A DNA stretch of 63,627 nucleotides from the IMG/VR virus record IMGVR_UViG_3300021341_000078, positions 1-63,627 of that record; one strand, 5' to 3'. Source of the stretch: a virus. Taxonomy: Duplodnaviria > Caudoviricetes. Position numbers and translations under genes: made by a program. Below the pieces are notes generated by a model that was not told the DNA's origin, ran no database searches, and saw nothing but the letters and a program-made list of their open reading frames with translations. Every line of letters starts with the position of its first letter. Position 1 is the stretch's first letter. Below are positions 4,612 through 63,627 of this stretch, one piece after another.

Positions 4612-4630
4612 ATTACTGTGTTTATCGCTT

Positions 4631-4686
4631 CTTGTCTCTTGTCTTATATCAAATGTGACAAGTTCTTATGACAATAAATGACAATT
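4631..4686. repeat. Clustered TGACAA/TTGTC repeats, candidate integrase arm-binding sites
   Basis: cTTGTCtcTTGTC...TGACAAg...TGACAAtaaaTGACAAt next to the tRNA 5' end. Confidence 0.5.
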
Positions 4687-4761
4687 TCGACCGCGAACAT
4701 AAAACAAAAATAGCACTCAAACAATTCCCGTGCTAATATTTTAATCTTTTTCTGAGACACT

Positions 4762-6786
4762 TTACATCTTCTCTAAATGTTCCTTCTTTGCTCTAATGAG
4801 ACTATCTAGTCTTTTTAACTTTTCTTTACTCTTGGATATGTCAGACATTAAAAAACTTTGTTGCTTTCCTAAAATCCTTACTTTCCTCTCTATATCTTCT
4901 GTGTATTGAGCATACTGTGCTCTGACTTTTTTATCATAGTTATGCACGTCCATCTCCGAACGCATTTTCTTCTTCTGTATCTCCAGTTCTATCTTCTCTA
5001 GCTTCGCTTGCTTACGTTGTATATCTGTCTCTAAGTCTTGTTTCCTGTTGCCCCAATGCTCCATCAAGTGCTCTACTCCCATCTTGTCCATAGCAAGATC
5101 CTGCATAGCAAAACGTATATCATTCTCTTTATCTTTTAGGAGGTATAAAGAGTCCTTGAGCTTATGTACTAATTCCTTCTCTCCATTCTGCAATCTAAGA
5201 ATATAGTTTTGTGCTCTAGAGTCTAATAGATCAACCTTGGATTTGTGTGAGGCGTACAGCTCGTTTGCTTTGCTAAGTAAGACACCAGCTTTCTCGTGTG
5301 AGAGATCTGACCTGTCTTTCATGTGTTGCATCTGCAACCTAAACTTATCTACCTCGTGTGCGTACTTGTTTATTGTGTCGGTGACTTGCAGAATACTCCT
5401 ATCATTGCGTAGTCTTTCATCAGACATAGCGTGTTCTACCTGCCTCAAGCTAAGGCCCACTTTTAACATCTCATTGCTATGATCTTGTTCTAGCTGTCGC
5501 AATGCTAAACGCTCATCACCTAGTGACTGCTCTAGCCTCAAAAACCGTTCTCCCATAGTAGCTAGTAGATCCATCTGTTGCCTATCCAGTCTAAGAACTT
5601 CTTGTCCTACTCTTAACAACGTATCGTTTATCTGCATCTTGATAGAGTTGTCTAAGGTGTTTAGTTGCATCTTTATTTCATACACATCATGTGTGATACG
5701 ATTCTCTATATCTGTCACCCAGTTTAAGATACTCTCACGCAAAGAGTAGAACTTGATCTCAGTGTTGTGCTCTACCTCTCTGATACTCTCATACACTCTA
5801 GCCATCTCTCGCTCTATAATCCTTTCAAGTTGGAGTTTGTCCATCTCTCCTTTATGCCTCAAGTCTTTTAGACCAGACTCAAAGTCATGTTTGATTTGCC
5901 CAAGATCTATCCTAACCTCAGAGAAACCCTTCTCTGTCTTGTATTGGTTCTCTATTACTTTCTCTTTTAACTGTTGGTACTTCTCTGAGTACTGCTGTCT
6001 GAACTCAAAGAAAGCCTCTCTCATTTCTGTTTTGAATTGTAGGTACTCTGCTTTGTTCTCGTATCTCTCTTTTATGATCTCATTGATCTTTGCGTTTAGT
6101 TGATTGGTGCGTTCGTTGAAAAAGTTCTCGTACTCACGCATCTTTTGTTGTTCGTAGGACTCCATATGCTCAATAATTTTAGCTTCATTATATACTACCT
6201 CTGGCTCTGACACACCAAACACATCTTCTAGTACTGACTCCCTTGCTTTATACGCGTGGTTTTTGATCTGCTCTTCTGCTTGCTCTTCTATCTTTGCTTT
6301 GTACTCGTTTATAACCTTTGTAGCATAATCACTATATTCTTGCTCTCTCTCTTTCTCTCTACCGTTTAGAAATAGCTCTTTAGCAAGTAACTCAGCTTTC
6401 TTATTGTTTAGCGTTGTAAGAAAATCTTTTACCATCTCGTCCGCTTTCTCTCTCGCTGTACTCTCCAACTTCTCTTCAAACTCTTTATAAACATTTCCTC
6501 TTTGTTCAAACCAATAGGTGTCCGCCTCGGCTTTCTTTGTGTCTATCTCTCTATCAATCTCTCTCCAGTAGTAGTTAGCGACAGCAACAACCAAACCTAC
6601 ACCTAGCAGGAAGGTGACTACGTACGTCCAGTTATATGCAAGGAAGGAGAGTAAAAGGTAAGCAGGGTATAACAACACAAGTACGCCTACAACGTAATAC
6701 CAAGTTTTTTTTGTTTCTTTATTTGTTGTGGGTTGTTCCTTTTTGTTGTCTCCGAATATTTGGTCGTATTCAGAATTAGAAAACAT
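4762..6786 (-). CDS. Membrane-anchored long coiled-coil protein (standard code)
   Basis: Two N-terminal TM segments then ~600 aa charged helical region; 674 aa without TGA. Confidence 0.8.
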   Translation of the reverse strand: MFSNSEYDQIFGDNKKEQPTTNKETKKTWYYVVGVLVLLYPAYLLLSFLAYNWTYVVTFLLGVGLVVAVANYYWREIDREIDTKKAEADTYWFEQRGNVYKEFEEKLESTAREKADEMVKDFLTTLNNKKAELLAKELFLNGREKEREQEYSDYATKVINEYKAKIEEQAEEQIKNHAYKARESVLEDVFGVSEPEVVYNEAKIIEHMESYEQQKMREYENFFNERTNQLNAKINEIIKERYENKAEYLQFKTEMREAFFEFRQQYSEKYQQLKEKVIENQYKTEKGFSEVRIDLGQIKHDFESGLKDLRHKGEMDKLQLERIIEREMARVYESIREVEHNTEIKFYSLRESILNWVTDIENRITHDVYEIKMQLNTLDNSIKMQINDTLLRVGQEVLRLDRQQMDLLATMGERFLRLEQSLGDERLALRQLEQDHSNEMLKVGLSLRQVEHAMSDERLRNDRSILQVTDTINKYAHEVDKFRLQMQHMKDRSDLSHEKAGVLLSKANELYASHKSKVDLLDSRAQNYILRLQNGEKELVHKLKDSLYLLKDKENDIRFAMQDLAMDKMGVEHLMEHWGNRKQDLETDIQRKQAKLEKIELEIQKKKMRSEMDVHNYDKKVRAQYAQYTEDIERKVRILGKQQSFLMSDISKSKEKLKRLDSLIRAKKEHLEKM

Positions 6787-6791
6787 AAACT

Positions 6792-8549
6792 ATGGATTAT
6801 AATTTCCCTTTCAAACCACAGGCTATAATATCTAAGGAAGAGATACAAGCGCTGTTTAAAGATGAAGAAGAGGATAGTGTTGTGTTAGGGTTTACTTATG
6901 ATATCGACTTCGATGTTCTCTGTAAGTTTTATAATCTTTGGTGCAACCGTGTGAAACGTCTAATAGACCTTGATATATTACAACACAAAAAACGCACCAA
7001 TCGTTCGGCTGTGTTGTTGAATTATAGAGGTTTTACTTTCGATGAGTTCCAAGATCTATATAATCCTCATGTTACGTTCCCCACAATATACCCTTTCTTT
7101 ATACAATCTGGTATAGATTCAGAGAAACAAAGGCAAAGAATACTTTATAAATACCCAGCAGACAATGACCAAGAAAACTACTTGACGGCTATCAAAGACA
7201 GTAAGTCTTATCAAGTCATGAATTTTTTTTTGCGTAAACAGCCAAACTTCCCTATCAAAGTACCCATAGAAGCTAAAACAATGCACGAACTAGTATTAGC
7301 TGGTACTGGTTCTGGTAAGTCTGTTCTACTCGCATCAGAAGTATACAACGACTCCTACAAACTACCTACATGGTCACAAGTAATTATAGATCCACACGGT
7401 TCTTTTGCTAGACTAGTTTTTGAGTCTAAGTTACACAAGCATGATGAACGTGTGATGTTTTTCGATATAAGGATGCTACTAGAAGGATGGCGCTGGGGAA
7501 TCAACGCATTAGACATAAGGAAAGGGAACATTCTAGAGAAGAACAACGTGATTGACCAGTTAGCTTCTGCCTTTGCTGACGTTCTAAGTAAGGAGGGTGG
7601 TGAGATGAGACAGAACGTCAATACGGTGATGAAGAAGTGTCTAGAGTTCCTTATAGAGAGCAGAAGTGATGGCAAAGACTACACGCTGCAAACACTGCTA
7701 GATCTTGTGTGTTATGAAGAATACATTCTAAAAGAAGCACAAGCCTACGATAAATTCTTTGAAAAGGATTTCACTCAAACGGAATCAGGAACAGTTAAAG
7801 CGGTAAGAAGGAGATTGCGCGCAATCATAGACGATAAGGTTTTAAACATGATACTAGGTGGACAGAGTACCTTTGACTTGGAAAAAGCTATAAACAGCAA
7901 TAAGATACTCATATTCGATCTAAGTGCGGTAGGAGAGGAATCACAACAAATTATTGGTAAGTTCCTTGTTGCAATGGTGAAAGGTTACGTTAGGAGAAGA
8001 AGAAAAGGAATAGATGATCTACACACACTGCTCAAGATAGATGAGTTCCAAAACTTCATTACTGGTAGTCTTTCTTACATGCTGGAACAGCTTAGAGGGT
8101 ACGGCTTACACTGTTCTTTAGCCTGTCAAAGTATAGCACAACTAGGAGCATACCTACAAACAGTAATTGATAACACTGCTATAAAGATAGTGAAGGCTAA
8201 GTACGTTAAGAACATAATGTCAATCACGAACGTGCCAGAGAAGTATATCTGGAGAGGTAAAAGAGGGGACGACTCTACACAAGCAGACGGTCTTCTAAAA
8301 CTTGCAAAGCGTGAGTTCCTATTAGATGTTAGACAACGGCTACATGTTCAGTCATTCCACTCACCAGGGTTCCTTGTTACTAGTAAGAAGTATAGACTAA
8401 GTGAGGAGGAAATAGAAACGTCTATGAATAAACAGTTAGTGAACTTCTACCATAGAATAGATCGAGACGAGATGGGGGAAACAGAGTTCAAAGACCCAGA
8501 TCCAGACCCAGATGTAGACTTAGAAATGTTCGATGTTCCAGAGGACTAA
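6792..8549 (+). CDS. VirD4/TraD-like coupling-protein ATPase (FtsK-HerA superfamily; standard code)
   Basis: Walker A AGTGSGKS, IIDPHG, Walker B KIDEFQNF, LRGYG...ACQSIAQL; no TGA in 585 aa. Confidence 0.85.
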   Translation: MDYNFPFKPQAIISKEEIQALFKDEEEDSVVLGFTYDIDFDVLCKFYNLWCNRVKRLIDLDILQHKKRTNRSAVLLNYRGFTFDEFQDLYNPHVTFPTIYPFFIQSGIDSEKQRQRILYKYPADNDQENYLTAIKDSKSYQVMNFFLRKQPNFPIKVPIEAKTMHELVLAGTGSGKSVLLASEVYNDSYKLPTWSQVIIDPHGSFARLVFESKLHKHDERVMFFDIRMLLEGWRWGINALDIRKGNILEKNNVIDQLASAFADVLSKEGGEMRQNVNTVMKKCLEFLIESRSDGKDYTLQTLLDLVCYEEYILKEAQAYDKFFEKDFTQTESGTVKAVRRRLRAIIDDKVLNMILGGQSTFDLEKAINSNKILIFDLSAVGEESQQIIGKFLVAMVKGYVRRRRKGIDDLHTLLKIDEFQNFITGSLSYMLEQLRGYGLHCSLACQSIAQLGAYLQTVIDNTAIKIVKAKYVKNIMSITNVPEKYIWRGKRGDDSTQADGLLKLAKREFLLDVRQRLHVQSFHSPGFLVTSKKYRLSEEEIETSMNKQLVNFYHRIDRDEMGETEFKDPDPDPDVDLEMFDVPED

Positions 8550-8654
8550 AAAAACAGCTGGTGTGTGACAGCTGCTTTCCCTTTACTTGTGGTGTGTAAT
8601 GATAGTAATAACGTAATTAGAGAAATTATCTTACACCTACTTATTACACAACAA

Positions 8655-9455
8655 ATGTCTAAAAGCAACAAAAAATATCTCAATGTGCTAAAGAACCTAG
8701 CCATCTATAAGTTCTTAACTCTAGAACAGATGGTGCGTTTGGGTGTGGATAACCATAAGACAAACATATCAACTGAGACAGCAACAATGATTAGGGATGG
8801 CCACGCCAATAAGATCTCAAAAAGCGACACCTCTCCAGCAGTTTACTATCTAACAAGAAAGGGTGCTACACGAGCAGAACACATCTTTGATATTACTCCT
8901 AGATACCCTAAAAGGAAAATGGATAAGATGGTAGACGACATGCCTCACAGACTATCAATTGTTGATCTACACATAGAGATATCTAGGTTCAACGTAATAC
9001 AACACTGGAGAGAGTTCGACTACGTAGGTGTGCAACGACAAAAGAACCTAGAGAAAGCAAGCAAGATAAATCTAGGACGAACATCACTAGTACCAGACCT
9101 AATCTTCAAACTCAACACAGACCAAGGACAAAGACTATACCTCGCAGAGGTGGAAAGAACAGAGGGTAAAACGGCAGACAAGTACTATGAAGACAAAGTA
9201 CACAAGTACATCACTTTGCTCAGTAACCAAGCGGTAATAAAAAGGAAGTTCAATGTGTCTCTAATGTATACAGTACTGTTCGTTATAGACGATAGAAAAT
9301 TCATAGAAAAACTAAAGAAAAAAATACTCAAGGATAAGAACGCTGAGAAGCATAACAAAAAGAAGCTCGTAGAGAGCTTCCTATTTAAGCATTTTGATGA
9401 TGATGTTTTCACTTGGACTAACCTAGAAGGAAAGCCTAGGTTGTTGTTCTATTAG
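8655..9455 (+). CDS. Replication-relaxation (Replic_Relax)-like relaxase (standard code)
   Basis: N-terminal wHTH (YKFLTLEQ...YYLTRKG), H motif PHRL, LVPD...AEVER PD-(D/E)xK-type core; adjacent to coupling ATPase. Confidence 0.75.
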   Translation: MSKSNKKYLNVLKNLAIYKFLTLEQMVRLGVDNHKTNISTETATMIRDGHANKISKSDTSPAVYYLTRKGATRAEHIFDITPRYPKRKMDKMVDDMPHRLSIVDLHIEISRFNVIQHWREFDYVGVQRQKNLEKASKINLGRTSLVPDLIFKLNTDQGQRLYLAEVERTEGKTADKYYEDKVHKYITLLSNQAVIKRKFNVSLMYTVLFVIDDRKFIEKLKKKILKDKNAEKHNKKKLVESFLFKHFDDDVFTWTNLEGKPRLLFY

Positions 9456-10500
9456 CCATCATATACTGGATAACTGGAGCGTAGTCTTTCAACTCCTGCT
9501 CGCTAGGCTCTCTAGTAGAGAGAATGGCTTTAGAGATCTGGAACTTCATTCTAGCAGAATACACATACTTAGCGTCTTTCTTATCTATCATAGCATACCT
9601 AGTAAACAAAGCTCGTAGATCCTCATACCTTACATAGAAGAATCCATTGTCGTACGCCTTTGGTCAGTAAGAGTTCATACACTTTATTAGCTGTGTATCG
9701 TCATCGTAACCAACAATAACAAACATGTGCCCACTTCACTTACTAACTTGAGCCACATATTCTGGATGGTTGCGTGTTGCGCTCCGAGAGATCTTATTTG
9801 TCCCTGTAATCACGGTTCTTCATTGAGCCAAAGCAGATTTAAGAGACGTTAAGTCGTTTACCCTGGTATATCATGCACAGATGCCTTTTGTTACGAGAAA
9901 CTTAACTTGATCCTGTAACCAACTACCATCTGTAATAGGGTTTACTCACTTTAGGTAATACTCTTGTTTGTATGCCTCTACGAAATCGTTCCAGTGTTTA
10001 TGTCAGTATAAGAAAGTAGAGCTTCATTCTATAGCGTTCATTATATTACCTGCGTGTGCTCCAGAGAAAGAACCGCAAGCATTACTAGTACTAGGAGTTC
10101 TTTTAACTCATTGGTTTTGTGGAGTCGTCTTAGGTCACAAGTCTACCTTCTTAGGTAGCTTCTGTTCTGATCAAAATAATAGTTCATGTGGTCGATCTCT
10201 ATCGTCTGGCTGGTCGTATGCAGCGTCTTGTTCCTCTCAGGCTAGCTCCTCTCCACTATCTTTTTTTTTTGATTTGGTCATCTCGTGGAATCCTACCGCT
10301 CAAGAACCTACTGCTATACCGTTAGCTATTCTTTGTTCAAGGTCTCACTCTCAAGTGAAGAACCCATAAACCAGACCGAGCAACAATGAAAGGAAGGGTA
10401 AAACTGACTTGTATCTGTCAGGTATCAAAGGCTTTATAATGTCGATAAATCATTTCACAATAGCTGCACCAGCTACTCCTACTGTTAGTTGTGTCTCCAT
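9436..10500 (-). CDS. Holin fused in frame to papain-like C1 cysteine peptidase (candidate endolysin); recoded
   Basis: With UGA=Gly: hydrophobic holin-like N-term ending GSGAVGFHEMTK; then QNQG...ACGSFS, GHMFVIVGYDD, NSYG...NGFFY catalytic motifs; internal ATG at 10281. Confidence 0.8.
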
Positions 10501-10521
10501 AGATATAGGTAGATTGTAAAA

Positions 10522-10770
10522 CTATCTTAACACTAGCGCAAGTACTGCTGTAACCACTCACGCTATCACTATTCAGATTAACCATTTAATAGCGTATTCA
10601 TAGTCTTTACTTGCGTACTTTTTATCTGCTGACTCTATGAAAGAATCGAGCTTATTTTCTAGGGTCACAAAATTATGTTTTACGTCCTTCTCTATTTTAT
10701 CTAACTGTCACTCGATGTATTCCATCTTTGTTTCCAGCTTAACGATTGATAAACTACTCTTCTCTGTCAT
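10522..10770 (-). CDS. XhlA-like membrane lysis protein; recoded
   Basis: Coiled coil followed by KWLIGIVIAGVVTAVLALVL C-terminal TM (G from TGA). Confidence 0.6.
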
Positions 10771-10909
10771 CTGTATAAAGATTTGTCTTAATTATAAAAA
10801 GAATAAACTGAGAATTTTTTCTCATAGCACTTTCTGAGAAAGCACGTCTAGTAGCATCATAAATATTCGCACCGCAATAATTAGTTTTGAGAACCAATTC
10901 ATGTGTAGA

Positions 10910-11326
10910 TTATGATAAACACTTTTGTTTGAACAGCTTTTTTATTTTAGTAGGGAACTTATACCAGTACCACCAACCTCACAACGTAACACCTAGCCGC
11001 ATCGCATAAGCTTTTACCTTGTTTGTTCAGGAAGCTATCAGAGCCTCTCTGAATATCAGATTACTCATAGGAAGTCACAGATCCCTATAGTCTGTGAACA
11101 TCCAATCATGTAAACAAGCAGCGTTGATTGTGCGTGGCTCTACTCTCTGTATGAACATTCCGAACACCATAGGAACAGAACCTCAGTCGAACTCGTATCA
11201 CTCTGGCACTTCTACGCGCTCACCTTTCATGCTATCAGAAAGATACCAGATCAGAGGCTTGGTAGTAACTCGCTTGTTCTTCTTAGGAAGAGGAGTGATA
11301 GAGGTATAAGAAGTAAATTTTGACAT
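10910..11326 (-). CDS. DUF1353-family protein; recoded
   Basis: VPEGYEFDGGSVP...AACLHDWMF with two TGA at Gly positions. Confidence 0.8.
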
Positions 11327-11335
11327 TTTTTATTG

Positions 11336-11608
11336 TTAATCGATGTAAATCTCTCATCAGACAGCAACGATAGCATCTTGTACTGGCTGAGTGAGCTTCG
11401 CTTGCACCAAAAGATTATCCATTTCTATATTCTCAATATAAGTGAAACCATCTTCACTAGTGTACTTATCGAAGTTGTCAGTCAAACGAATAAGCTCGTC
11501 TACCAGCTGGTAGAAAGCGCCTCATTCTAGTACCGTAGTGTACGGTAGCTTTACTGTCGCCATCTGTGGTGGGGACTCTGGAGCCTCAGTAATTACTACT
11601 TCTCTCAT
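11336..11608 (-). CDS. Hypothetical protein; recoded
   Basis: Open from ATG to TAA with TGA read as Gly. Confidence 0.55.
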
Positions 11609-11612
11609 TATG

Positions 11613-12506
11613 CTAGTTTATAGTGTAAAGTATGGTTCGCGTGAAACCAAGTAGGTAAAGATTACTAGAACCGTTACTTGTTGTTCTTCTAATAAGTGGT
11701 GCTATTTTCTGTCATTTGTTCACCGTAATGTCTGCAATATCATCCCAAACGCCGCTATCTACCGTGTCCAAATGAGCCTTATTGTAAATTCATGCGCCTG
11801 TGATGGTATATTGTGCCTCTGGTCATACCAAAGCGTTAGAGACACTAGTTCAACTAGTACTAGTCTGTCTTACAAATTGAACCTTAAAACTCACATCTAT
11901 ATTTTTATCATAGTTCCAAGACAAGAACACCTTCTTGATAGTCAAATCGTAAGGCGCTGTTCGTCCAGCAAACTTATAGTTAGGATTGGGCTGTGTACTT
12001 GTTCAGTAGTTTGTAGATAGATCGTAGAAGATGCCTCTACTACTGTTAGGTCATTGCCATCTACCATTCCTGAGAGTAGCACGTCAACCTGCTGTGAAAG
12101 TATACTCAGTTTCATCTACTGAGTCTATGTCTTGGTTGTCGTCATCTACATCGTATAAGTGTGCTTTCTTGTAACTCATCGTAGGACGTGAATCATCTGC
12201 GTCTTTTTCTGCTTGAGTACCCACTGTAACAGTATCTAATCATAGGTCGGTTAGTCTAGCGTTCACAGCAGTCTCTACGTCCGTACTTGTAGCCTCCTCA
12301 AATCACCACTCGCTAGCTTCCTTCTTTATAAGCTCTTTTATAACTGGCACGTCTCAAGACTCTATCTTGATGTAGCTATGTCAGTCGTTGTCTTGATACC
12401 AGATCTCAGACAACACTAATCATGTGTACCTCCTCATGAGAGCGTCTATGTCTGGGTTGATCTCCTGAGATCCAGTTACTCGCAGCTTCTTATATTTCAA
12501 ATACAT
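11613..12506 (-). CDS. Hypothetical tail-associated protein; recoded
   Basis: 297-aa frame open apart from TGA. Confidence 0.6.
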
Positions 12507-12526
12507 CTTCTATACTCAAAATAAAA

Positions 12527-14266
12527 CTAGTTATATGGCTTACCGTTACCTTGTGCGTAGATTGCTCTCACCTCACATTGAGTAAGCGCCTTTCAGTTGT
12601 ATAGAATGGTGTCATCTATATTCCCATCAAGAGGCGCTCAAGGGTTTGCAGAACCAGATCATCTATATCCCAGTCAAAGGTTTGCTGTAGGGTTATCTAT
12701 TCAAAGCCCAGTTGTAGGGTCATCTATAAAATCACCTCAGTCTATAGAGATTCTCACACGACTATTTCCAGAATCATGAACCGCAGCTACCATATGGAAC
12801 TGTCAAAGTGTAACAGATCATGCAGCAGTGTCTACAAACTCTACTCATCCTGCTGTGGTTCTTATCAAGAATCTTGTCTTGTTTCATGCAGAACTATCAA
12901 ACAGTACCGCCCAAGCAGCGTCTGCAAAAGATGTTGAGTTCTCTTGCGCAAAAATATACTGCTGGATATGACCAGTAGCAGTACTGTCTATCTTAAACCA
13001 AGTAACAACACTGAACGTGTTCACGTCGGTAGTGAATCAGCTATAAGAAACACGATCAGTTGAGCCATTATAGCTATAAGAAGCTGAACCTAGCTTGAAG
13101 TTTACAGTATCGTGTGTCGCTCAACTTATCGTAGCGTCGTTTCCGTTCCCTGTAGCGTCTGGATAGCTACCGTTTGTGTCAGCTTTCCAATATATCGTAG
13201 GTGTTGATACTGTATTTGCTCACAGAGTGAAAGATTGCGTAGCAACACCTATATCATAACTATAACAAGTACCCTCAGCACTAGTCATGTAAGAAGCTAC
13301 GTATAGAGTCTGAGGCGCAGTAACTAAATCAGTAAGTGTTGTTCGCATGATGTACTGACTAAGGTTTACTTCTGTTTGTGAGTAAGCACCCACTGCTCCA
13401 GCTCCTAGACTTACTACCGCCGCTCACGCTGTGGCTGTTGTAGGGTTAGTACTTGTAGCTACTACAAAACCATGATCTGTAATACCAGAACTGTTATCGG
13501 CTACGATAGTACCTGTTAGGTCTGCACAAGCTAGGTTTATGTTACTAGGAGCGTCTAGGGTGAAGTCGAATAGAGGTAGTAGTGTGAATGATAGATTATC
13601 TGAGTATCAGTAACCATTTACATTACGACCAAAAGACCTCACATGTAGAGTTTGCGAAGTACATTGTGAGAACTGACTAAGGTCAATAGTCGTTTGTGTG
13701 AAGTTAGCATTACCTGTGTTACCTTCTATCTCAAGTTTTACATTGGTATCTCAAACACTAGGACTTTCTACCTGACCTATTACCCAACCTCTTTCTATTA
13801 CAGCACTACCGTTATTATTGGTTATATCTCCATCGAATACTGCGTTGTGTCAGGTGATACTAGATACAGCAACATCACCAGCGTTTAATTCTGGTGTAGA
13901 AGGGTGTAGTATCTCTACTTCGTCTGAGTAAGCATATGTAGCACCTCCGTCGTTAGTTGCATAAGCCCTATACCTCCAAGTTTCACCATCATCGATCTGT
14001 CAGCTAGTAATTGTCTGTATGTACGGAGAATCTCCAACCGCACCTGTATAAACAACTTGTGTTACATCAGCATCTCATATTGAGAGGTTAGAACCTGAAG
14101 TATCTTGATACCTAATAATACCCTGCTCAGTAATTGCAGCACCTCAATTATCGATTATGATAGCAGTAAACTTACCTCATCTACCATATGACTCATTTAC
14201 TGTTAGAGTTCACATAGTAGGAGGATTAATAATTCCTCAAGGCTGTACAAATGATAAACTTGGCAT
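12527..14266 (-). CDS. Receptor-binding/tail protein with FN3-like repeats and C-terminal LamG/ConA-like domain; recoded
   Basis: IDNGGAAITEQGI...YRAYATNDGG; C-term LDGNIDDTILYNGKALTQCEVRAIY. Confidence 0.75.
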
Positions 14267-53870: not shown

Positions 53871-53883
53871 ATCTCTACCTACA

Positions 53884-54518: not shown

Positions 54519-54543
54519 AAAGTTTTATTACCTAAACTTTTTT

Positions 54544-55712: not shown

Positions 55713-56240
55713 ATGACAGATTCATTTTTGCCTGAAAACTATTCAGAGCCGTCAAACAGTGACTTCTTGAAGCTAGAGGCTGGTACTACAAAGATTAGAT
55801 TCTTGCAATCTCCAGTTATCTCTTGGGAGCTTTGGGAAGATAAAGAAGACGGAACAGAGTGACGCAAAGTTGTTAGAGGAAAGAAAGAGGAAGGACAACC
55901 TATTCCACCTAGCTCTAAGCTAGTATGGACTTGTATCGTTTGGAACCATAACGACCAACGTATGCAGGTATGGAGCGTAGGACAAAAGACTATCAGAGAT
56001 CAGATCGTAAGCATTAGTAGAGACGCAGACTTTGGAGACCCACGTAACTTTGACATTAAGATCAAGAAGGAAGGGGAGAAGATGAAAACTACTTACACTA
56101 TCAACCCGCTACCTCCTACAGAACTAGGAGAGGAAGCAAAGAACACAATCATGCAAACACAGGTAAATATAGACGCATACTTTGAGGGAGAGAATCCTTT
56201 CTGAACAGGGAGTGACGACGACTCTGACGTTCCTTTTTAA
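55713..56240 (+). CDS. Probable single-stranded DNA-binding protein; recoded
   Basis: FLKL...KIRFL...DIKIKKEG...TTY; acidic tail SDDDSDVPF is reached only if TGA 56202 is read through. Confidence 0.65.
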
Positions 56241-57150
56241 TCACTAGGGGCTTCGTGCCCCTTTTATTTTTGAAATATACTTATGTATAAGTTGATAATC
56301 GACTCTCTAAAAAAGATGGAAAAGGATGTAATCAAAGACACAACAATCAGCATCTTAGACGAGTACTTGTACCAATACAACCTTTTGATAAACGAAAAGA
56401 TAGATCTTATTAAAGAATACTCCTTAAATAAATGAGACTATGAGGACAAAGTGAGAAAAAAAGTGAGCCAACTGCTAAGTGATAGGATCGTAAAGCACAA
56501 GACAAAAGCGGAAACCATAGCAGAAGAGGAGCATAAAGAACTATGAGAAAAAATAAGAAGAGACAGTATAGTCATAGAAGAGATAGACACATTTTCTAGG
56601 AAGACATTAAATAACTACCATCATGGGAAGTCTAAATTAAAGAGTGACTTCGATATGGATAAGCAGGTAAACAATATAGCTAGATTTCAAGAATGACACT
56701 AATTGCTTTACATCTTACGTATTATACAATGTGAATTATTATTGCACTATGAATCGTTGCGTTGATCTTTTTATCGTTTAAGCTCTCGTGTAGCAGTTGC
56801 AATACACAAGCGATCAACCCACAACAACCAAAGATTACTCCAGCAAAGACCACTGTTTTCACTAAGTGATGAAGTAACCTAAAAGCACCTAAGAAAAGAA
56901 AGACCCCTAAGACTGACAAGCTGAATGAGAACAGAGCACAAATCGAATTACAGATACTAGCAGGTTGGACCAATGAAGATATCGCAAAGTACTACTGAGT
57001 AGGTAGTTCGACTGTTCAGAGATGGAAAGTTGCTAGAGGGATAAAGAGACTATCTAAAAGACAAATAGAGAAGGGGAAAGAGATGCTAGGGGAGAGATAT
57101 GATGTAAAGAAGTTCCGTAAACAAGCTAAAGAAGCAGGATTAATGCAGAC

Positions 57151-57178
57151 TTGACAAATGTAATTCCAGAGTTATAAT
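57151..57178 (+). promoter_or_regulatory. Consensus sigma70 promoter TTGACA-N16-TATAAT
   Basis: Perfect -35 and -10 hexamers. Confidence 0.75.
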
Positions 57179-57620
57179 ATAGATACTTTACTTCTAACAC
57201 ATACAAAAATGCCTACACGATTCAAGTACCTGACTGTCTTTTGTCTATGATTAGCTCTGTGAGTTTGGAGCATGAGTCTTGTATCAGCAGACTACAGCCT
57301 TATCCCTACTCCTGAACAAGCTGACTTTGTTTACTGACTAGAGATGGAGTACAGAAACACTATCCAACAAACTATTGCTCAAGCTAGATACTACCAAGAG
57401 TATCAAGACAACTGCGAGCTAGAGGAGGCGTTCTTTACGTTCGATAGAAAGAAGATTACTTGTGAGGAGATAGAAGATCACTTCCGTTCTAAGTACTTCG
57501 AGATCGCAAACCTTGCTTATAAGCTAGATGGGTATTGTGATGAGTACTTTGGGAGATCTGGTAAAGCATGTAGCATGTATGTAGACATGTATAGAAGCTA
57601 GTTTTATTCTTACAAACAAA

Positions 57621-58397
57621 ATGAGAAAGTATACACCGCATATAATTACAGTACTAATACTAGTACTTATCGTATGAACAATACTGAATCGACCAACACA
57701 AGAAAATAAATCACAGCTAGAGAAGCTAGTAGAAGAAAGAGCTATCCTAACAGAACAAATACAACAGATAGAAGCAACAGAACAAGAGATACAGAAAGCT
57801 ATTGAACAGGAGTGTAAGAAGATGGATATAGAATGTGCAGTAGATAGCATACCAGAGAAAGTAGAGCAAGTTGTTGAAGCTAACGGAAAGGTAGAGGTAG
57901 AGGAGCAAGAACAGTCACCCACCAAGGAAGAGAAAGAGCTGATGGAGCAGATATGCAAACTAGGAACAAAGAATGGTAAAACAACTATCCTATGTGATAA
58001 CTGGGAGCTGTACTACCAACTAACTGAAATAAGTGCCAACAAGTGAGTTCCATTCAAACTTATGTTAGGTATTACTATGGCAGAAAGCCACATAGGTACA
58101 AACCGAGCACCAAAAGAAGAGTGCTCAAAGTCTAAGAACTGGGCATGACTAAAAGGAGCAAAGAAAGACGATGGATCTGTTATATGGTATACAGTAGCAG
58201 GCAAAGGTATAGAGGGGTGTTACTTGTTTAAGTTCGACTTAGTTACAGACTTCCGAAGCCATTTTGCAAACACACTACTAACCTATCAGAACGCTTGTTG
58301 ACGAGATCCAGCATGTATCTCGGTAAGATATGTGGGAGGACAAGGAACAAAGAAGAGATGGGTACAAGCAGTTAATTTATTCTATACTAATGAGTAA
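57621..58397 (+). CDS. Membrane-anchored coiled-coil protein with lysozyme/glucosaminidase-like domain; recoded
   Basis: N-terminal TM; GVPFKLMLGITMAESHIG...NWAGLK. Confidence 0.55.
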
Positions 58398-59006
58398 TGT
58401 GACAGCTAGTTTTTTGATCTAAAGAGGCAATAGAAAAGCTAATCGAGAGCTTAAAGAAAACAAGTCTCTCCTTAAGTAGACACTACTGTACTTGTGACCA
58501 CTGTGATTTAAATGGTCTTATAGAACAAGCCTCTTGCTCCTCGTGCGACACTATACTTTACGGTTCTCGGTGAAGTCCAGAACATAGAGAGGCAGAAATC
58601 GTACTAAAAGAGATAATGGAAGAGTCAGATAAGGTGCGTGAAAAGTGATGAGCATTGCTTTGTAAAAAATGTGATTCACAGATAACTCGTTTAGATTGGT
58701 CAGAAAAGGAAAGTCTTCTAAGATCCTACATAGGCGATATAGAGGAAAACAAAATTACTCTTTTTTTAGATACTAACAACAAGTAATGAAGAAGTTTCTA
58801 CTAATACGATTGCCAATCCTTTTGTGATCGTTTCTTGGAGTAATGCTTGCTTTAAAGTTTGAGCCAGTTAGACGGTCTACCTGAGAGAAGATTTGATGGA
58901 GTGTGTATGAAAGAGAAAGTGGAAAATTTGTGTGACATGCTATATATAAGTGACCTCATAAGGGTTTTCACTGACCAAAGGAAGATTTAGATAGTAATAA
59001 TAAGTA

Positions 59007-59360
59007 ATGATAGACCCACAGAAAACGATAGACCGAAACCTTGCTTTTGGAAATAAACAACAGTTTGATACAGGGAAGTATGATTGATACCTAGATTACA
59101 GCATGATGAGAGAGGAGATACGTGAGTTCTTGCTAGCCTCAGATAGTGACGATAAGGTAGAAATGGTAGATGCCTGTATAGATGTGATATTTGTAGCTCT
59201 ATGAACGCTACATAAGCTATGATTAGATGCAGAGTCGATCACTAGAGCGTATGATGAGGTGTGTAGGTCAAACGATAGCAAGATCGGAGCTAAGAAGAGA
59301 GATGGGAAAGTAACTAAGGGAGAAAACTACTCACCACCTAACCTAAATTTTGTTCTTTAA
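59007..59360 (+). CDS. MazG-like NTP pyrophosphohydrolase; recoded
   Basis: EEIRE...VEMVDACIDVIFVALG...EVCRSNDSK...DGKVTKGENY. Confidence 0.85.
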
Positions 59361-60901
59361 ATATACAAGATGTCTAGATTCAAACTTAACACACCTAGAG
59401 AAGTACACGAGAACCCAAACAGCAAGTTCCAAGCTGGTCTAAATAAGCTCAGAGAGCTTTGAGCAGAAGAATTATTACAAACCTTCACTGAGATGCGTGA
59501 GAACCAGAGAGACGCTTGAACACGAACTGAGACAGCTGATACTGCTGCTGGTCTGATCTACGATAAAATAGAGGAGGAAAAGAGCAAGAGAAAGTAGTGG
59601 CTGTTTCCATTTTGGAACATACCACAGCAACCCTTTTACCTTAGTATTACAGATGGAATTACTTACTTGATACGTATTAGCAAATTGCTTCATTTTTTCT
59701 CCACTTATTGGCTACGATAGCCCTTACTCTGAGTGGCGTTATTGTCCTGAGTTTGATGCTCCTTGCGTAGAGGAAACATTCTATAGGTTTAGAGACTGAG
59801 TATATGACTGTAGAACAGACGGTGAACGACTAGCGCATTGTGCCGATTCAGAATAACCTTATTTATTTAGTATATGGGGATGAAGAAAGTATACAGATGA
59901 TGTGAAATAGAGATAACAAGAGAATATGACGAAATCTACCACTCTATCTTTTCGAAAGACTGACGAGAGCTTGCTAGTTGATTCGGTCGGTGAGATACCA
60001 TACGGTCTGTTCGATGACCATGTCAACTTAGAGTTGATTCATTCTTAGATGAATGCTGATGAGACTTTGAAAAATATGAGGAGATGCGATACGGAAAACC
60101 ATTTTAGTTTGCAGAACAATCATTGTCTAAAGTAGATTTATCCTACCCTCACACATGGAAAAGCTCCCAACCCCACAACCTAAAAAGAGACTATTCAAGA
60201 AGCAAGAGTATCAACAGAGGCTTGCCGAAGTATTGAAGTGAAGCTGTCGGCAATGCGGTAGACTATCTAACAACCTAACAGGAGGACTATGTCCTGACTG
60301 CTTATAATACTAACCACAAACAATGTCCTATAAAAGAAAGACAGTAAACGTAACACACTTCTTTTGGTTCAACTGAAAGATACATAGAGTAGAGGACGCT
60401 TATAACTTATGACATAAAAGACAAAAGCCTATAATCACATGGCTAGAAGAGTATAACAAGGCAACACAAGAGTACTCAGGCATAGGAGATAAAAGAAAGC
60501 GCGAAAAGATTAGAAAACTAGAAAGTAAAATACGGTGATACCTGGGAAACTAGTTTTACTTTACATATAGAAATGAAACCAGACTTTACACGAGACGAAG
60601 CAATTACAGGAATGAGGAATCGGTTTATAGTATGAGTAGCAGTAGGTATACTTATATCTACGCTGGCTAGTTTTATTGTTTAATGTATAGACATGAGTAC
60701 CGTATGAGAAGAAATACTTGTAGAACTAGAAAGATGTAAAATGTTACTTTCTATGTATCAAGAAATATGAGTAGAAGGAGTTTTTTGAGCAACACTTATA
60801 TCAGAGTGAATTAATAAAGCAGAAAAGGCGATTAGTGAATGAAATATAGTAGAAATAATCAAGTCGTATGAGGAACTAAAGTCCTTTGAGTAGATAAAAA
60901 G

Positions 60902-60931
60902 AAAGCCCCCTAGGAAACTAGGAGGCTCTTT
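60902..60931. terminator. Bidirectional terminator at the recoded/standard-code boundary
   Basis: A-run, AGCCCCCTAG-GAAA-CTAGGAGGCT, T-run between convergent blocks. Confidence 0.6.
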
Positions 60932-61158
60932 TTTAGTTCAGATTCGAGACGTTCTTGGAACAGCTCTGTCAGGTTCTCTGAGGCTTGCGCTTCACTGTAG
61001 GGAATCCTGACAATCAAGCAATCATCCTCATAGATAACCTTATCTACTTCATCTATACATTCTAGTATAACGAATAGATCTTGTTCAAACTGAGCTTCTA
61101 AGAACTCTACGTCAATCAGATCAAAGAGATCTTCTTGTACTGCTCTCGTAATTGTCAT
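60910..61158 (-). CDS. Acidic hypothetical protein (standard code)
   Basis: 82-aa ORF preceded by TATATTTG. Confidence 0.6.
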   Translation of the reverse strand: MTITRAVQEDLFDLIDVEFLEAQFEQDLFVILECIDEVDKVIYEDDCLIVRIPYSEAQASENLTELFQERLESELKKSLLVS

Positions 61159-61214
61159 TTGTGTTGTGATTTAGTTAGCATGTGCGCCACACTCTCCTCA
61201 CCTTACAAATATAC

Positions 61215-61748
61215 CTACTGATCACCGAGATTCAAAATAGGTCTCGCTAGCTTGTAACGTATAAGCTCACCTTGTGGTTTGTCTGGACGAGAGAGGTTTT
61301 CTTCACTGAGTGGATACTTGCCTATCTCAATGACCTCTAACTCCTTGGCTTTCTGTACTGTCCCTTTGTAGATAGTAACATACTCAAGGTTCATCCTTTT
61401 TAGATACTTAGGCTTGTATCTCTTGGATTCCCCTTGGATTGTAATACCGATTTTCGCTGTTTCACCTTTGTAGAGGTAGAATGTGCCGTTTGGACAATGT
61501 AAACACTGATAGTAACCGTTTCGTCTAGCAACTAAGCGGTATGTCTCAGCGCTTTCTCTCATCCTTCTCACCTTGTCGTTGAGTTGGGCTTTTCTCTTCT
61601 CCTTTAGTTCGTACGTTCCGTCTGGATTGCGTTTTACGTAGTCATCAAATGACTCGTAAGCGAAGTAAAGTAATGCGAATAGCAGGAATAAGATTGGTAG
61701 GGTTCTACTCTTGCCTACTGGTGTAGGGCTTTCTGTTTTCTTAACCAT
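61215..61748 (-). CDS. Membrane-anchored protein with GIY-YIG-like motif (standard code)
   Basis: TM, then YRL...CxxC...KIGIT...RY...E. Confidence 0.55.
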   Translation of the reverse strand: MVKKTESPTPVGKSRTLPILFLLFALLYFAYESFDDYVKRNPDGTYELKEKRKAQLNDKVRRMRESAETYRLVARRNGYYQCLHCPNGTFYLYKGETAKIGITIQGESKRYKPKYLKRMNLEYVTIYKGTVQKAKELEVIEIGKYPLSEENLSRPDKPQGELIRYKLARPILNLGDQ

Positions 61749-61873
61749 ACTGCCTTGAATTTTGGCGGTTTACGAATATGATTTATTCGTAAGTACTGCC
61801 CTCAAGGTAGTGCGTGACTATTGGAGAGGGGCGTTTCTGCTCCTCTCTTTCACAATAAACATATAACAAAAAA

Positions 61874-62335
61874 ATGGAAAAGAAAAGAGTACCTAAACGT
61901 GTTGCAGAAATCCAAGTAACCTACTCAGCTAAAATTAAAAAAGAAGAACGGCATCAAGTCAAATGTAGCCTAGACATCTACCAGATAGTCATGTCTGAGA
62001 TCTATGGTGATGATATTGAGTACGTAGAGACGTTCTACGTTATAATGCTTAATAGATCTAGTGAGATATTGGGTTATAAACAAGTTAGTAAAGGAGGATC
62101 ATCGGGCACGGTTGTCGATGCAAAGGTGGTATTCGCGCCAGCGTTAAAGTGTCACGCGAGTAGTATACTCTTAGTACACAATCACCCTTCATCTAGCCTA
62201 TACCCTTCACAACCTGACAAGAACCTAACAAAGAAACTAGTAGACGCTGGGAAGCTACTTGACGTACTTGTCTTAGACCATTTGATCGTAACTATGGAAG
62301 GCTATTACTCCTTCGCAGATGAGGGTCTTATTTAG
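61874..62335 (+). CDS. radC: RadC-like JAB-domain protein (standard code)
   Basis: E..Y...LNR, HNHPS...PS..D, VLDHLI, YYSFADEG. Confidence 0.92.
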   Translation: MEKKRVPKRVAEIQVTYSAKIKKEERHQVKCSLDIYQIVMSEIYGDDIEYVETFYVIMLNRSSEILGYKQVSKGGSSGTVVDAKVVFAPALKCHASSILLVHNHPSSSLYPSQPDKNLTKKLVDAGKLLDVLVLDHLIVTMEGYYSFADEGLI

Positions 62336-62344
62336 CAATTATCT

Positions 62345-62370
62345 ACTGACGGACTACCGTCAGTTTTTTA
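62345..62370 (+). terminator. Intrinsic terminator between radC and integrase
   Basis: ACTGACGG-ACTA-CCGTCAGT followed by T-run. Confidence 0.7.
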
Positions 62371-63627
62371 TTATAGCATATCTATCGCGTTCTGTAGTTT
62401 CTCTCTATCTCTCACTATACCCAAATACTTATTGGTAGTCTTTATTGAAGCATGATCCATAAGAGTTTTAACCGTCATTATGTCTACACCTTTTGATAGC
62501 GCTAGGGTAGGGGCTGTGTAACGTCCACTGTAGAAGCTAAAGTATCTACCATCGCTGAAACCTATCTTTTTGGAGACCCTCTTATAGCACTTATAGGAAT
62601 TGTCTCTCTCTCTTTTTGCCCTTCTCTCTGTCTCTACTGGATCTTTATCGAAACCATTTAGTATAGGTAGTATGTACTTACCTTTTGAGTCTATCTTTTT
62701 CAGTATCTCTAGTGCAGCCTCCTTCACAGGTTTCCCCAGCTTGTTCTCGAACCCAGTCTTTGATCTACTATACTTCCAAATGTCGTTTGTGATATCATCC
62801 CAACGCAACCGAGCTAGGTCTATAAGGTTCACCCCAAAAAAGAAATATGAGAGAACCCAGTAGGACATGTACTTCCATTCAGTGTCTGAGAAGGTGTTGT
62901 TGTAGTAATAGAAAACAACGCTTTCTTTTTCTTCCTCAGTCAGATCTCTAATTCTTTTCTTATTGGTTTTTTTCTTCCCTTTTCTTTTGCGCTCGTTTAT
63001 ATCATACCCGTTAGGGTTGTAGACTGTCTTAAAAGGGTTGTGCTTGGCTTCTATTATTCCCTCCTTGAGTGAGAAGGATATCAGTGTTTTTGTCCACTTT
63101 AGATAGTTGAAGCCGTTCATATCTCTCTCGTCGAAAGACTTTGTAAGTTTATTTATAGAGGACAGATTGAAGTCGCGTATTCGTTTATTGTCCAAGTCTG
63201 CTTTCTCAAATACAGGTATGAGTGCTAGATAGTTTTTTGCAGAAGATACATCACCAGACTCCACCTTGCGGTTGTATATGTCCATAGCAAACTCTCCTAA
63301 GCGCTTATCTTCTACCTGCTCAGTAGATCTATGCTTAGCTAACAGGCTAGAGAACTCTTTATAATCAAAGCTATCTATGAAATTATTCTGGTAGACGTGG
63401 TAGCAATCATCAAGGTACTGTCTGATATAACCATTCTTTTTCTGTCGACCTCTTTCGTGTACATTATAGCATCTTCTTTCAGAGTCCCAATTCTCTTTTA
63501 AGCAGGAATAGCCCTTGATCCTTTTCTTAGTGTTGTTACCTCCATACCTGATCTGTATGCAGACAGGGTGTGCACCATTTCTTAAAGTAACATGTTTGTC
63601 AAGGTAAGTGACAAAAGTAACCTTCAT
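62371..63627 (-). CDS. Tyrosine integrase, Bacteroidota type (standard code)
   Basis: N-terminal arm-binding-like HPVCIQIRY; GVNLIDL, RSKTG, FYSGRYT, MDHASIKTTNKYL. Confidence 0.92.
   Translation of the reverse strand: MKVTFVTYLDKHVTLRNGAHPVCIQIRYGGNNTKKRIKGYSCLKENWDSERRCYNVHERGRQKKNGYIRQYLDDCYHVYQNNFIDSFDYKEFSSLLAKHRSTEQVEDKRLGEFAMDIYNRKVESGDVSSAKNYLALIPVFEKADLDNKRIRDFNLSSINKLTKSFDERDMNGFNYLKWTKTLISFSLKEGIIEAKHNPFKTVYNPNGYDINERKRKGKKKTNKKRIRDLTEEEKESVVFYYYNNTFSDTEWKYMSYWVLSYFFFGVNLIDLARLRWDDITNDIWKYSRSKTGFENKLGKPVKEAALEILKKIDSKGKYILPILNGFDKDPVETERRAKRERDNSYKCYKRVSKKIGFSDGRYFSFYSGRYTAPTLALSKGVDIMTVKTLMDHASIKTTNKYLGIVRDREKLQNAIDML

Follow-up and report, generated by a model that had tools for sequence, protein, structure and literature searches.

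A two-code prophage in a marine Saprospiraceae chromosome, with lytic genes apparently written in the Absconditabacteria code

How can a phage be kept in the chromosome of a bacterium that seemingly cannot read most of its genes? The question is raised by IMG/VR record IMGVR_UViG_3300021341_000078, a stretch of 63,627 nucleotides (nt) from a tailed phage (Caudoviricetes), which we call the window, at its full length. A preliminary description had proposed that the element at 4612-63627 is a prophage whose lytic genes follow the code of Absconditabacteria, inside a standard-code Bacteroidota chromosome. We conclude with confidence that it is one DNA molecule carrying two codes, integrated in the chromosome of a marine Saprospiraceae (Bacteroidota). 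The record is a single contig of 63,627 bp, classed as a virus record. Its left edge is the stop codon of a minus-strand open reading frame (ORF) and its right edge the integrase ATG; since both fall on gene boundaries, the record looks like a provirus excised from a longer contig. A contig of 78,292 bp, which carries the cluster with the window's Replic_Relax protein, corresponds in length to about the window plus an extra 963 nt and 12.7 kb of flanking contigs.

Long-ORF density in the window is 0.36 under the standard bacterial code (table 11) and rises to 0.81 when TGA is read as sense, compared with 0.54 for TAG and 0.48 for TAA as sense. Sixty-eight genes were called in 4612-63627; 55 (81%) contain at least one in-frame TGA and are referred to as recoded, and 13 contain none. 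All 68 end in TAA (35) or TAG (33), as do the genes of the flank. The 55 recoded ORFs are intact under the TGA-sense reading, and neither TAA nor TAG interrupts even the genes of 984 and 1158 amino acids (aa), the latter holding 40 TGA codons; the number per recoded gene in the 9436-34499 module ranges from 1 to 40. Read in this way, the segments at 9.4-34.5, 37.6-39.0 and 40.2-60.6 kb yield a complete tailed-phage gene set in Pfam and PHROGs. The code boundaries, at 9436/9455, 34499/34748, 37610/37633, 38970/39066, 40136/40170 and about 60.6-60.9 kb, lie where the preliminary description had placed them, with one further pair added here. Altogether the code switches at least seven times along the single contig, and the convergent or divergent junctions are tight (20-250 nt).

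The meaning of TGA, CGA and CGG in the recoded genes can be read from conserved alignment columns. We aligned the large terminase (TerL) with those of five standard-code phages: Flavobacterium 11b, Cellulophaga phi10:1, Bacteroides Versailles and BS-TP3, and Polaribacter P12002L. Glycine is invariant at 9 of the 15 TGA sites and in the majority at 12, and the invariant tryptophan columns hold CGG57, CGG175 and CGA277. We then pooled TerL (9 homologues), a C5-methylase (4) and TnpB (4 of 5 loci, the broken L040 being excluded). The 29 TGA columns average 62% Gly, a level matching that of GGN codons (56-73%), and the conserved ones are Gly in 15 of 16 cases. CGA (7 columns, 53% Trp) and CGG (5 columns, 49% Trp) each fall on two conserved-Trp columns; in the same test TGG scored 36% Trp, and AGA, AGG and CGT 33-42% Arg. 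Diagnostic motifs are spelled with TGA or with CGA/CGG: the Walker A of TerL, PCQGFS and GNGW of the methylase, the G-W of the NUDIX protein, the W of NUMOD4 and the WDGH motif. Counts in 31 recoded genes (8,854 codons) are 267 TGA, 50 CGA, 21 CGG and 67 TGG, and TGA accounts for 42.5% of Gly codons in recoded genes.

UGA=Gly with CGA and CGG=Trp, and Arg mainly AGA, is the code that Shulgina and Eddy 2021 (PMC8629427; here as for all studies below, we refer to the available portions of the text) reported for Absconditabacteria; in Gracilibacteria, CGG alone is Trp, and in some only. Usage in our recoded genes, over all codons and not just Pfam-aligned ones, is 56 CGA, 24 CGG and 76 TGG per 10,000 codons; the CGA/CGG figures are above those given in PMC8629427 for all but one genome. 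That study saw the code in cells, whereas here it is seen in a phage. In its available text, phages share the AGG=Met change of their host although they do not carry the tRNA, and CGA/CGG=Trp is not reported in phages. Judging from codon alignments, we are confident that the predicted lytic set (lysis, virion, packaging and replication) is written in the Absconditabacteria code, with TGA=Gly and CGA/CGG=Trp. Both the codon meanings and the match to Absconditabacteria had been put forward in the preliminary description, and both are upheld.

TGA is unevenly spread among recoded genes. Three structural genes have one TGA apiece: the capsid-like gene at 30643-31884, the probable major tail gene at 27397-28305 and a fibre/decoration gene at 15061-16479. 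More generally, the capsid-like gene and other presumably abundant virion genes contain 0-2 TGA, versus dozens in their neighbours, both here and in recoded relatives described below, where TGA-poor capsid-like genes lie at 6621-7823 and 5469-6671 in L113/L115 and a 387-aa gene is found in L127/L131. TGA may thus be disfavoured as a Gly codon in highly expressed genes.

The 13 TGA-free genes are the integrase, a RadC-like gene and two neighbours, a trio at the left end, a trio between portal and TerL, a 356-aa gene and two small genes. They hold 167 Gly codons and not one TGA, for which the joint probability is about 7e-41 given 42.5% TGA elsewhere; the integrase alone, with 0 TGA among 22 Gly codons, gives P=5e-6. 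The portal-TerL island (34748-37610) runs on the opposite strand and has a lower GC content, 0.33-0.38. CGA/CGG codons of this set, where testable, stand at Arg or Lys positions: the integrase sites align with RR-A, TTTR and KLML, and CGG516 of the ATPase with K/R/Y/R/K/K/G/K, never with Trp in either protein. The claim that integrase, RadC, ATPase/relaxase and morons read normally is thereby sustained. The Replic_Relax protein has a 62% relative, P0002, with Arg at three CGA sites; P0002 is a protein only, its codons unread, so this is not evidence.

Relatives of this set are few. The top named homologue of the coupling-like ATPase is from Haliscomenobacter sp. (37%), and the integrase has homologues (29-34% identity, E<=1e-40) in 4 of 101 genomes of Saprospiraceae, with no tRNA nearby within the 2.5-4.2 kb of sequence examined. 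Searches of IMG/VR returned no relatives of the ATPase or Replic_Relax proteins, nor of the recoded capsid-like and portal proteins, and the Replic_Relax alignment found none in JGI metagenome contigs. P0002, the sole close Replic_Relax relative, lies on a 44,160-bp Logan contig, and a 35% ATPase relative, P0004, on a contig of 22,852 bp; these two contigs may be sister elements. What can be stated firmly is that the standard-code set spans integration, DNA mobilisation or maintenance, and conversion-type membrane proteins.

The carrier can be named from the attachment (att) site. The tRNA-Ala(GGC) at the left junction is identical over its 75 nt in 4 genomes of a 185,579-species collection, all of them Saprospiraceae metagenome-assembled genomes (MAGs; one labelled Lewinella). 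We aligned Logan contigs (k=31) of four seawater runs, X1-X4, over window 1-20000; the runs bear four study codes, share one year and habitat and may be one campaign, and X1 and X2 are possibly the source samples. In X1-X3, four arms join at 4571-4613. They are a 5,563-nt contig (window 1-4600), a 27,774-nt phage contig (X1) from 4584 onward, a 31,393-nt contig ending in the core and a 12,705-nt contig starting in it, and the arm depths in X1 are 16.9/14.9/15.1/15.1; left-flank and phage arms stand at about 1:1 in X2-X4 too. Past the core, the 12,705-nt arm resembles DNA just upstream of the same tRNA in the 4 Saprospiraceae MAGs. The Bacteroidota carrier of the preliminary description is thus confirmed, on both the tRNA and the attR side.

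The 27.8-kb contig crosses the 9.4-kb switch, as does an X2 contig (8226-9805), and depth is even, with all 30 bins covered, in all 4 runs. Loose ends among those listed lie at about 431-473 and 4533-4613. The 27.8-kb contig stops at about 32.33-32.36 kb, inside a (TTC)n run at 32319-32386, and the 31,393-nt contig has the size expected for the remainder of the element. This agreement would put attR, as a second core, about 63 nt past the integrase ATG, outside the window; the window holds no third copy of the core, and its last 68 nt had no match in metagenome contigs. The k=31 contigs break at two coding repeats, a poly-Thr run at 423-474 in a flank protein and the Glu-rich (GAA)n tail at 32127-32386 of the protease/scaffold gene.

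The prophage, about 59 kb long, thus separates the 5' half of the tRNA from the DNA natively upstream of it; the 43-bp core stands at both ends and the tRNA is kept whole. Integration at the 5' half of a tRNA is unusual; here it is this half that is repeated, and not the 3' end. Upstream of the tRNA there is now phage DNA: the native MAG upstream sequence has a TATATTTG box, of which the phage side has no exact copy. The preliminary description had spoken of an ordinary host flank with a tRNA att site. The tRNA is indeed the att site, the core being its 5' half at 4571-4613; the 4.5-kb flank is less ordinary than supposed, as it has two ORF-less stretches.

How would this carrier read the element? 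The flank amine oxidase contains no TGA in 451 codons, its CGA442 falls on an Arg shared by 11 of 11 Saprospiraceae orthologues and by LSD2, where it is also conserved, and its CGA57 aligns with K/Q/D. No tRNA or tmRNA other than the tRNA-Ala was found in the window by ARAGORN at default and 90% thresholds or by Rfam at E<=1; ARAGORN at 80% with introns made 98 calls, mostly with long introns and evidently spurious. Pfam scans of the window's proteins turned up no release factor or aminoacyl-tRNA synthetase domains. The gene prfB, for release factor 2 (RF2), scores above the curated cut-off in 4 of 4 Saprospiraceae MAGs with the identical tRNA. With no tRNA in the prophage and RF2 encoded by the nearest relatives of the host, only the standard-code set should be produced in the lysogen.

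A third marker, independent of codon meaning, separates the two gene sets upstream of their starts. Neither set has a Shine-Dalgarno signal. The sequence (T)TTTA occurs within -26..-10 of the start in 37 of 54 recoded genes, with a peak at -19..-21, versus 3 of 14 TGA-free genes, none at -19..-21, and 10% of random positions (Fisher p=0.002). With a uniform ORF caller and offsets of -18..-23, the signal was counted in 38 of 57 genes in the window's recoded parts (9400-34600, 37600-39000, 40100-60900) and in 42 of 70 genes of seven recoded IMG/VR relatives (L113, L114, L126-L130). The corresponding counts are 79 of 934 genes (8%) in 77 standard-code TerL relatives, 57 of 557 in the 49 of these with GC <0.36, and 0 of 14 for the TGA-free genes; at -19..-21, Saprospiraceae chromosomal loci have it in 1 of 42 genes (about 2%). 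The signal reveals that the recoded genes are suited to an expression system common to other TGA=Gly phages, and not to that of Bacteroidota-type relatives or of the phage's own TGA-free genes. We found no description of the signal in the literature, including the available portions of PMC9297842 and PMC6851277.

The Bacteroidota -7 box, TAnnTTTG, precedes three TGA-free genes (34748, 47903 and 60910-61158) versus 1 of 55 recoded genes. Its positions are 34674-34681, 47792-47799, 48302-48309 and about 61206-61213; the box lies 74 nt before 34748, and TTG...TAnnTTTG 55 nt before 60910-61158. There is a fourth TGA-free case if 48358 is a true start, and such small numbers come close to what chance would give. 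Two of the boxes lie in the copies (47769-47799 and 48279-48309) of a 31-nt repeat, which are 81% identical.

The kinship of the recoded genes points the same way as their upstream signal. Among cultured phages, the nearest TerL proteins are those of Bacteroidota phages (34-40% identity), and standard-code TerL relatives occur in 3 of 201 Saprospiraceae genomes (36-41%), with weaker matches in 6 more. This single-query search found no TGA-interrupted TerL in the 201 genomes; one weak match with 2 TGA, in genome G161, was set aside as the surrounding DNA is ordinary standard-code. Much closer proteins are found in a 5.8-billion-protein collection, where the top matches reach 56-58% and have W at conserved Gly columns, which implies that the source pipelines translated TGA as Trp. 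Among the best 120 of 1,836 TerL matches, 38 have W in at least 2 of 18 conserved-Gly columns, and two of the nearest homologues have R at a conserved Trp column. We built a FastTree phylogeny of these 120 TerLs, the query and five reference phages, rooted at the midpoint, after masking W in recoded rows and W/TGA/CGA/CGG sites in the query. All 38 recoded TerLs and the query fall into one 43-leaf clade (support 0.995), in which the query groups with P0042-P0044 (0.999). By this measure the phage can be placed with confidence in a clade of TGA=Gly phages.

IMG/VR holds nine recoded relatives, three among the best 80 of 442 TerL matches and six found by a Walker-A DNA pattern with TGA codons. 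Their GC content is 0.31-0.34, and none of the nine loci has a suppressor tRNA. Two carry a tRNA-Trp(CCA) (L127, 3266-3338; L131, 516-588) without any TGA-decoding tRNA. No PF00589 integrase was seen in the records of four recoded relatives, which are fragments, 15-40% complete. The portal had no match in phage records, and the DnaB-like helicase a single weak one in the search for relatives.

Features of the window at 1-63627, with strand and supporting data
Feature	Position	Strand	Remarks
Thr-rich secreted protein	1-483	-	left flank
GG-leader-like small peptide	1922-2077	-	left flank
Flavin amine oxidase lipoprotein	2287-3642	+	left flank; Saprospiraceae orthologues
Small helix-turn-helix protein	3800-4051	+	left flank
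tRNA-Ala(GGC), intact	4537-4611	-	ARAGORN, Rfam; sole tRNA in window
att core (attL), 43 bp	4571-4613		tRNA positions 1-41 + 2 nt
Coiled-coil protein, 674 aa, TGA-free	4762-6786	-	P(no TGA)=1.6e-5
HerA/TraG-type ATPase, type IV secretion coupling-like, TGA-free	6792-8549	+	Pfam; P(no TGA)=1.1e-7
Replic_Relax protein, TGA-free	8565-9455	+	Pfam; P(no TGA)=0.012
Recoded lysis and virion module	9436-34499	-	Pfam, PHROGs
Holin+peptidase fusion, recoded	9436-10500	-	
DUF1353 protein, recoded	10910-11326	-	
Fibre and receptor-binding proteins, recoded	11613-21791	-	
Baseplate/Dit, recoded	21849-23759	-	
Tape measure, recoded	23759-26713	-	
Probable major tail protein, recoded	27397-28305	-	
Neck and adaptor proteins, recoded	28534-30300	-	
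Probable capsid protein, recoded	30643-31884	-	
S78 protease with acidic tail, recoded	31847-33094	-	
Portal, recoded	33174-34499	-	
Transglutaminase-like, TGA-free	34748-35515	+	P(no TGA)=1.4e-4
GYF_2-domain membrane protein, TGA-free	35421-36209	+	P(no TGA)=3.9e-3
PqiA-like membrane protein, TGA-free	36357-37610	+	P(no TGA)=8.2e-5
Large terminase TerL, recoded	37633-38970	-	15 TGA, 3 CGA, 2 CGG; Walker A has three TGA codons
TGA-free gene, 356 aa, no assigned function	39066-40136	+	4 CGA; P(no TGA)=1.6e-5
Small recoded genes	40170-43684	-	incl. weak small-terminase match 41782-42192
Recoded replication and early module	43797-60553	+	
Restriction endonuclease-like protein, recoded	43797-44219	+	
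C5-methylase, recoded	44978-45874	+	
HNH, recoded	45905-46591	+	
Two small TGA-free genes	47903-48259 and 55178-55471		inside early module
O-like initiator/DUF6291, recoded	48870-49574	+	
DnaB-like helicase, recoded	49541-50407	+	
TnpB, recoded	50848-51891	+	8 TGA
NUDIX, recoded	52994-53491	+	
WDGH protein, recoded	53481-53870	+	naming motif spelled CGA-GAT-TGA-CAT
RusA, recoded	53884-54246	+	
NUMOD4/HNH, recoded	54493-54972	+	
Single-stranded DNA-binding-like protein, recoded	55713-56240	+	
MazG-like protein, recoded	59007-59360	+	
TGA-free gene beside integrase	60910-61158	-	
TGA-free gene beside integrase	61215-61748	-	
RadC-like JAB protein, TGA-free	61874-62335	+	
Tyrosine integrase, TGA-free	62371-63627	-	PF00589, PF17293; Bacteroidota-type arm-binding N-terminal domain

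In the left flank, the amine oxidase has Saprospiraceae orthologues of 50-59% identity (12 loci fetched), and matches at E<=0.001 occur in 186 of 201 genomes of the family, mostly paralogues. No convincing ORF, under table 11 or 25, is found in 483-1900 and 3650-4536, and the flank lacks the terminator hairpin seen after the tRNA in related MAGs; it may itself be a decayed insert. An integrase remnant suspected by eye at 4175-4381 was withdrawn, as BLASTP, Pfam and tblastx gave no support. The small minus-strand ORF at 1922-2077, with a leader ending in ...KGG, is presumably akin to the GG-leader precursor peptides of Bacteroidetes; the MAG labelled Lewinella has a copy of 53% identity (L009, 5801-5896) close to this tRNA-Ala, on the other side of the tRNA. 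Within the element, a weak RAGATH-18 match directly after TnpB (51957-51996; 31 bits versus a gathering score of 44.9, E=0.06) may belong to the guide-RNA region of the IS605-type element. A 29-nt repeat, 83% identical, occupies two intergenic sites of the late region (21820-21848 and 34557-34585, the second between the portal start and the TGA-free island) and may be a common regulatory site.

What, then, would a lytic programme do in a cell that cannot translate it? The likeliest mechanism, which we favor tentatively, is a code lock closed to the carrier, with lytic growth taking place in an Absconditabacteria-type cell. A temperate tailed phage of about 59 kb is integrated into the 5' half of the tRNA-Ala(GGC) of a marine Saprospiraceae, whose standard-code ribosomes can read the 13 TGA-free genes, with their TAA/TAG ends and CGA/CGG=Arg. 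The lysogen would then make the integration, maintenance and conversion genes of the standard-code set only, and the lytic set would be truncated at TGA and misread at CGA/CGG, so that the code itself would act as a lock on the lytic programme. This lock would be opened only by translation machinery of the Absconditabacteria type, most simply in a cell on or near the Saprospiraceae host, which phage DNA or virions would reach after excision. That the recoded ORFs are intact, that morons sit within the virion module and that the att core leaves the tRNA complete all speak for an evolved arrangement rather than a recent accident.

Several points weigh against this mechanism. Neither the phage nor the samples are linked to any Absconditabacteria sequence, spacer or cell, and, among standard-code sequences, the nearest to TerL (41%), TnpB (45%), integrase (33%) and ATPase (37%) come from Bacteroidota or from phages of Bacteroidota; these bacteria could be the hosts of the entire recoded clade. 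The evidence on CGA/CGG in TGA-free genes comes from few sites, one strong and about five weak, and several such codons of the recoded genes stand in basic contexts, where Arg would be equally suitable. As to decoding, which the preliminary description had named as decisive if the tRNAs or the code were found in the host, no such tRNA lies in the window and RF2 is present in all four relatives; the judgement is made from these relatives with the actual host genome unread, and a host-borne or co-resident tRNA-Gly(UCA) and tRNA-Trp(UCG/CCG) are possible. Suppressor tRNAs are detected in only 35-40% of recoded phages (Borges et al., 10.1101/2021.08.26.457843), so that the lack of one is no proof of needing another cell. 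Finally, k=31 Logan contigs by themselves would look alike whether the phage is integrated or circular beside an unoccupied site, as k is shorter than the 43-bp repeat; the case for integration is made by the original assembly, the depth ratio and the sum of contig sizes. Spanning of a switch by contigs was seen at 9.4 kb, the boundaries at 34.6-40.1 and 60.9 kb lying outside the mapped 1-20000.

We may extend the code-lock mechanism to a phage that shuttles between two hosts of different phyla and codes, persisting by lysogeny in Saprospiraceae and multiplying only in an Absconditabacteria-type epibiont or neighbour. Transfer of the excised genome to that second cell may be the work of the coupling ATPase and the Replic_Relax protein, both standard-code. 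This fuller version is possible, and we regard it as doubtful. Published code-25 phages offer partial parallels. Absconditabacteria phages use code 25 (PMC10746230, Liu et al. 2023; Borges et al.), and our element resembles those of such Candidate Phyla Radiation (CPR) bacteria in its dense TGA=Gly, its TGA-poor capsid-like gene and its lack of code-change genes; its kinship with TGA=Gly phages is seen in the TerL clade with 38 others and in the (T)TTTA signal common to 7 recoded IMG/VR relatives. However, all prophages that Liu et al. found in Absconditabacteria and Gracilibacteria genomes were densely TGA-coded; in the available text the published code-25 prophages sit in code-25 CPR genomes and are exclusively code-25 compatible, whereas ours sits in a Saprospiraceae chromosome and has 13 standard-code genes.

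Hints that CPR and other bacteria share phages are given in PMC10746230, where spacers of non-CPR bacteria match some predicted Absconditabacteria/Gracilibacteria phages as well. The predicted Gracilibacteria phages targeted from both sides number nine, all code-11 compatible, five of them with Bacteroidetes spacers; of five co-targeted Absconditabacteria phages, two are clearly code-25 and three match Firmicutes spacers. This published sharing thus differs from our case in that it is drawn from CRISPR spacers and mostly concerns phages without in-frame TGA. The preliminary description had likened the element, as a protector of its host, to a mavirus-type provirophage defence. The only idea in common is a latent integrated virus whose activation harms the parasite of its carrier: virus type and mechanism differ, and there is no evidence here of attacker, induction or carrier benefit.

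Alternatively, we may hypothesize that all or most of an Absconditabacteria phage genome was joined to a standard-code integrative or mobilisable backbone (integrase, RadC, coupling ATPase, Replic_Relax), or brought by it into Saprospiraceae, and has since been untranslatable cargo, a dead end. The TGA-free end genes do resemble the backbone of a Bacteroidota integrative mobilisable element, for which the searches of IMG/VR and JGI metagenome contigs gave no relatives, the one 62% Replic_Relax protein apart, and the carrier is apparently unable to read the lytic genes. We nevertheless consider such a capture less likely than the code lock, though a serious rival to it: unselected DNA would soon lose its 55 intact recoded ORFs, and the tight packing, with TGA-free morons on the opposite strand within the virion module, suggests co-evolution rather than an end-to-end join. 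The core that duplicates part of a Saprospiraceae tRNA and leaves it whole, and the maintenance of the element at about host depth in four runs, are also at odds with it.

In another scenario, the phage both lysogenises and lyses Saprospiraceae, and a factor outside the prophage alters decoding upon induction; candidates are tRNAs encoded by the host or a co-resident element, or an unrecognised factor among the unannotated small genes. Borges et al. (10.1101/2021.08.26.457843) described TAG-recoded Garnet/Topaz prophages in Prevotella and Oscillospiraceae, with stop-free integrases beside tRNAs, and proposed the code as a partition between lysis and lysogeny. The architecture of our element matches theirs: tRNA-adjacent integration in a standard-code host, an integrase free of the recoded stop, and structural and lysis genes fragmented in table 11. 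The modest share of recoded phages with detectable suppressor tRNAs, the Bacteroidota-linked relatives of TerL, TnpB, integrase and ATPase, and the near 1:1 depth of phage and host flanks in four runs are also in favor of such a switch. However, those prophages use TAG->Gln, whereas here TGA=Gly is combined with CGA and CGG=Trp, there is no suppressor tRNA, recoding extends to 81% of genes and the phage is a member of a TGA=Gly clade. As far as the available text goes, the only phage codes that Borges et al. saw differ from the host's were TAG->Gln and TGA->Trp, and for their code-25 phages (about 90% of genes recoded) the hosts were assumed to be code-25 as well; our element has the exact Absconditabacteria combination. 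A reassignment of CGA/CGG must moreover out-compete the host's own Arg tRNAs, the scans of the prophage gave no tRNA, release factor or synthetase gene while RF2 is present in the four host relatives, and (T)TTTA is infrequent in standard-code relatives and almost missing from loci of Saprospiraceae. For these reasons we rate an in-cell switch below the code lock; like dead-end capture, it would account for the same anatomy and is a serious rival.

Far less probable is a chimera of reads from a code-25 phage and a Bacteroidota element or chromosome, which the preliminary description had itself named as a refuting outcome: the record does come from a metagenome, the core repeat does break k=31 contigs and X1 and X2 may be the source samples, yet a chimera would have to produce at least seven switches with tight junctions on one contig, the first of them crossed by the 27.8-kb X1 and 1.6-kb X2 contigs, at even depth in all 4 runs, and the break at about 32.36 kb is a (TTC)n run whose far side is fitted by the 31,393-nt contig. 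That the carrier itself uses TGA=Gly and CGA/CGG=Trp is the least credible explanation, since the TAA/TAG ends of element and flank genes, seen without the host genome itself, would be compatible with it, but the TGA-free amine oxidase with its invariant Arg at CGA442, the Saprospiraceae-like tRNA-Ala and attR-side flank, RF2 in the four same-tRNA MAGs and the lack of in-frame TGA in Saprospiraceae homologues of TerL, amine oxidase and integrase all contradict it.

Recoded prophages in standard-code hosts are so far known only as stop-to-Gln or stop-to-Trp cases, which a single suppressor tRNA could enact, and code-25 phages only with code-25 hosts. We found no report in the literature of a code-25 or CGA/CGG=Trp prophage in a standard-code genome, although such cases may be listed in supplementary tables of Liu et al. 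and Borges et al. Each of the readings that remain would therefore be new. In practice, three markers (TGA use, the meaning of CGA/CGG, and (T)TTTA about 20 nt before starts) sort genes by expression system, and such two-code elements are a warning, since they can be cut apart or wrongly labelled when proviruses are called and hosts assigned. If the phage does not depend on a second host, a Bacteroidota cell may be switchable to another code by undescribed means. If it does cross phyla and codes, it would offer a physical handle on the partners of uncultured marine Absconditabacteria: the genetic code would serve as a host-specific switch between lysogeny and lysis, and Saprospiraceae would be named as a partner of these bacteria.

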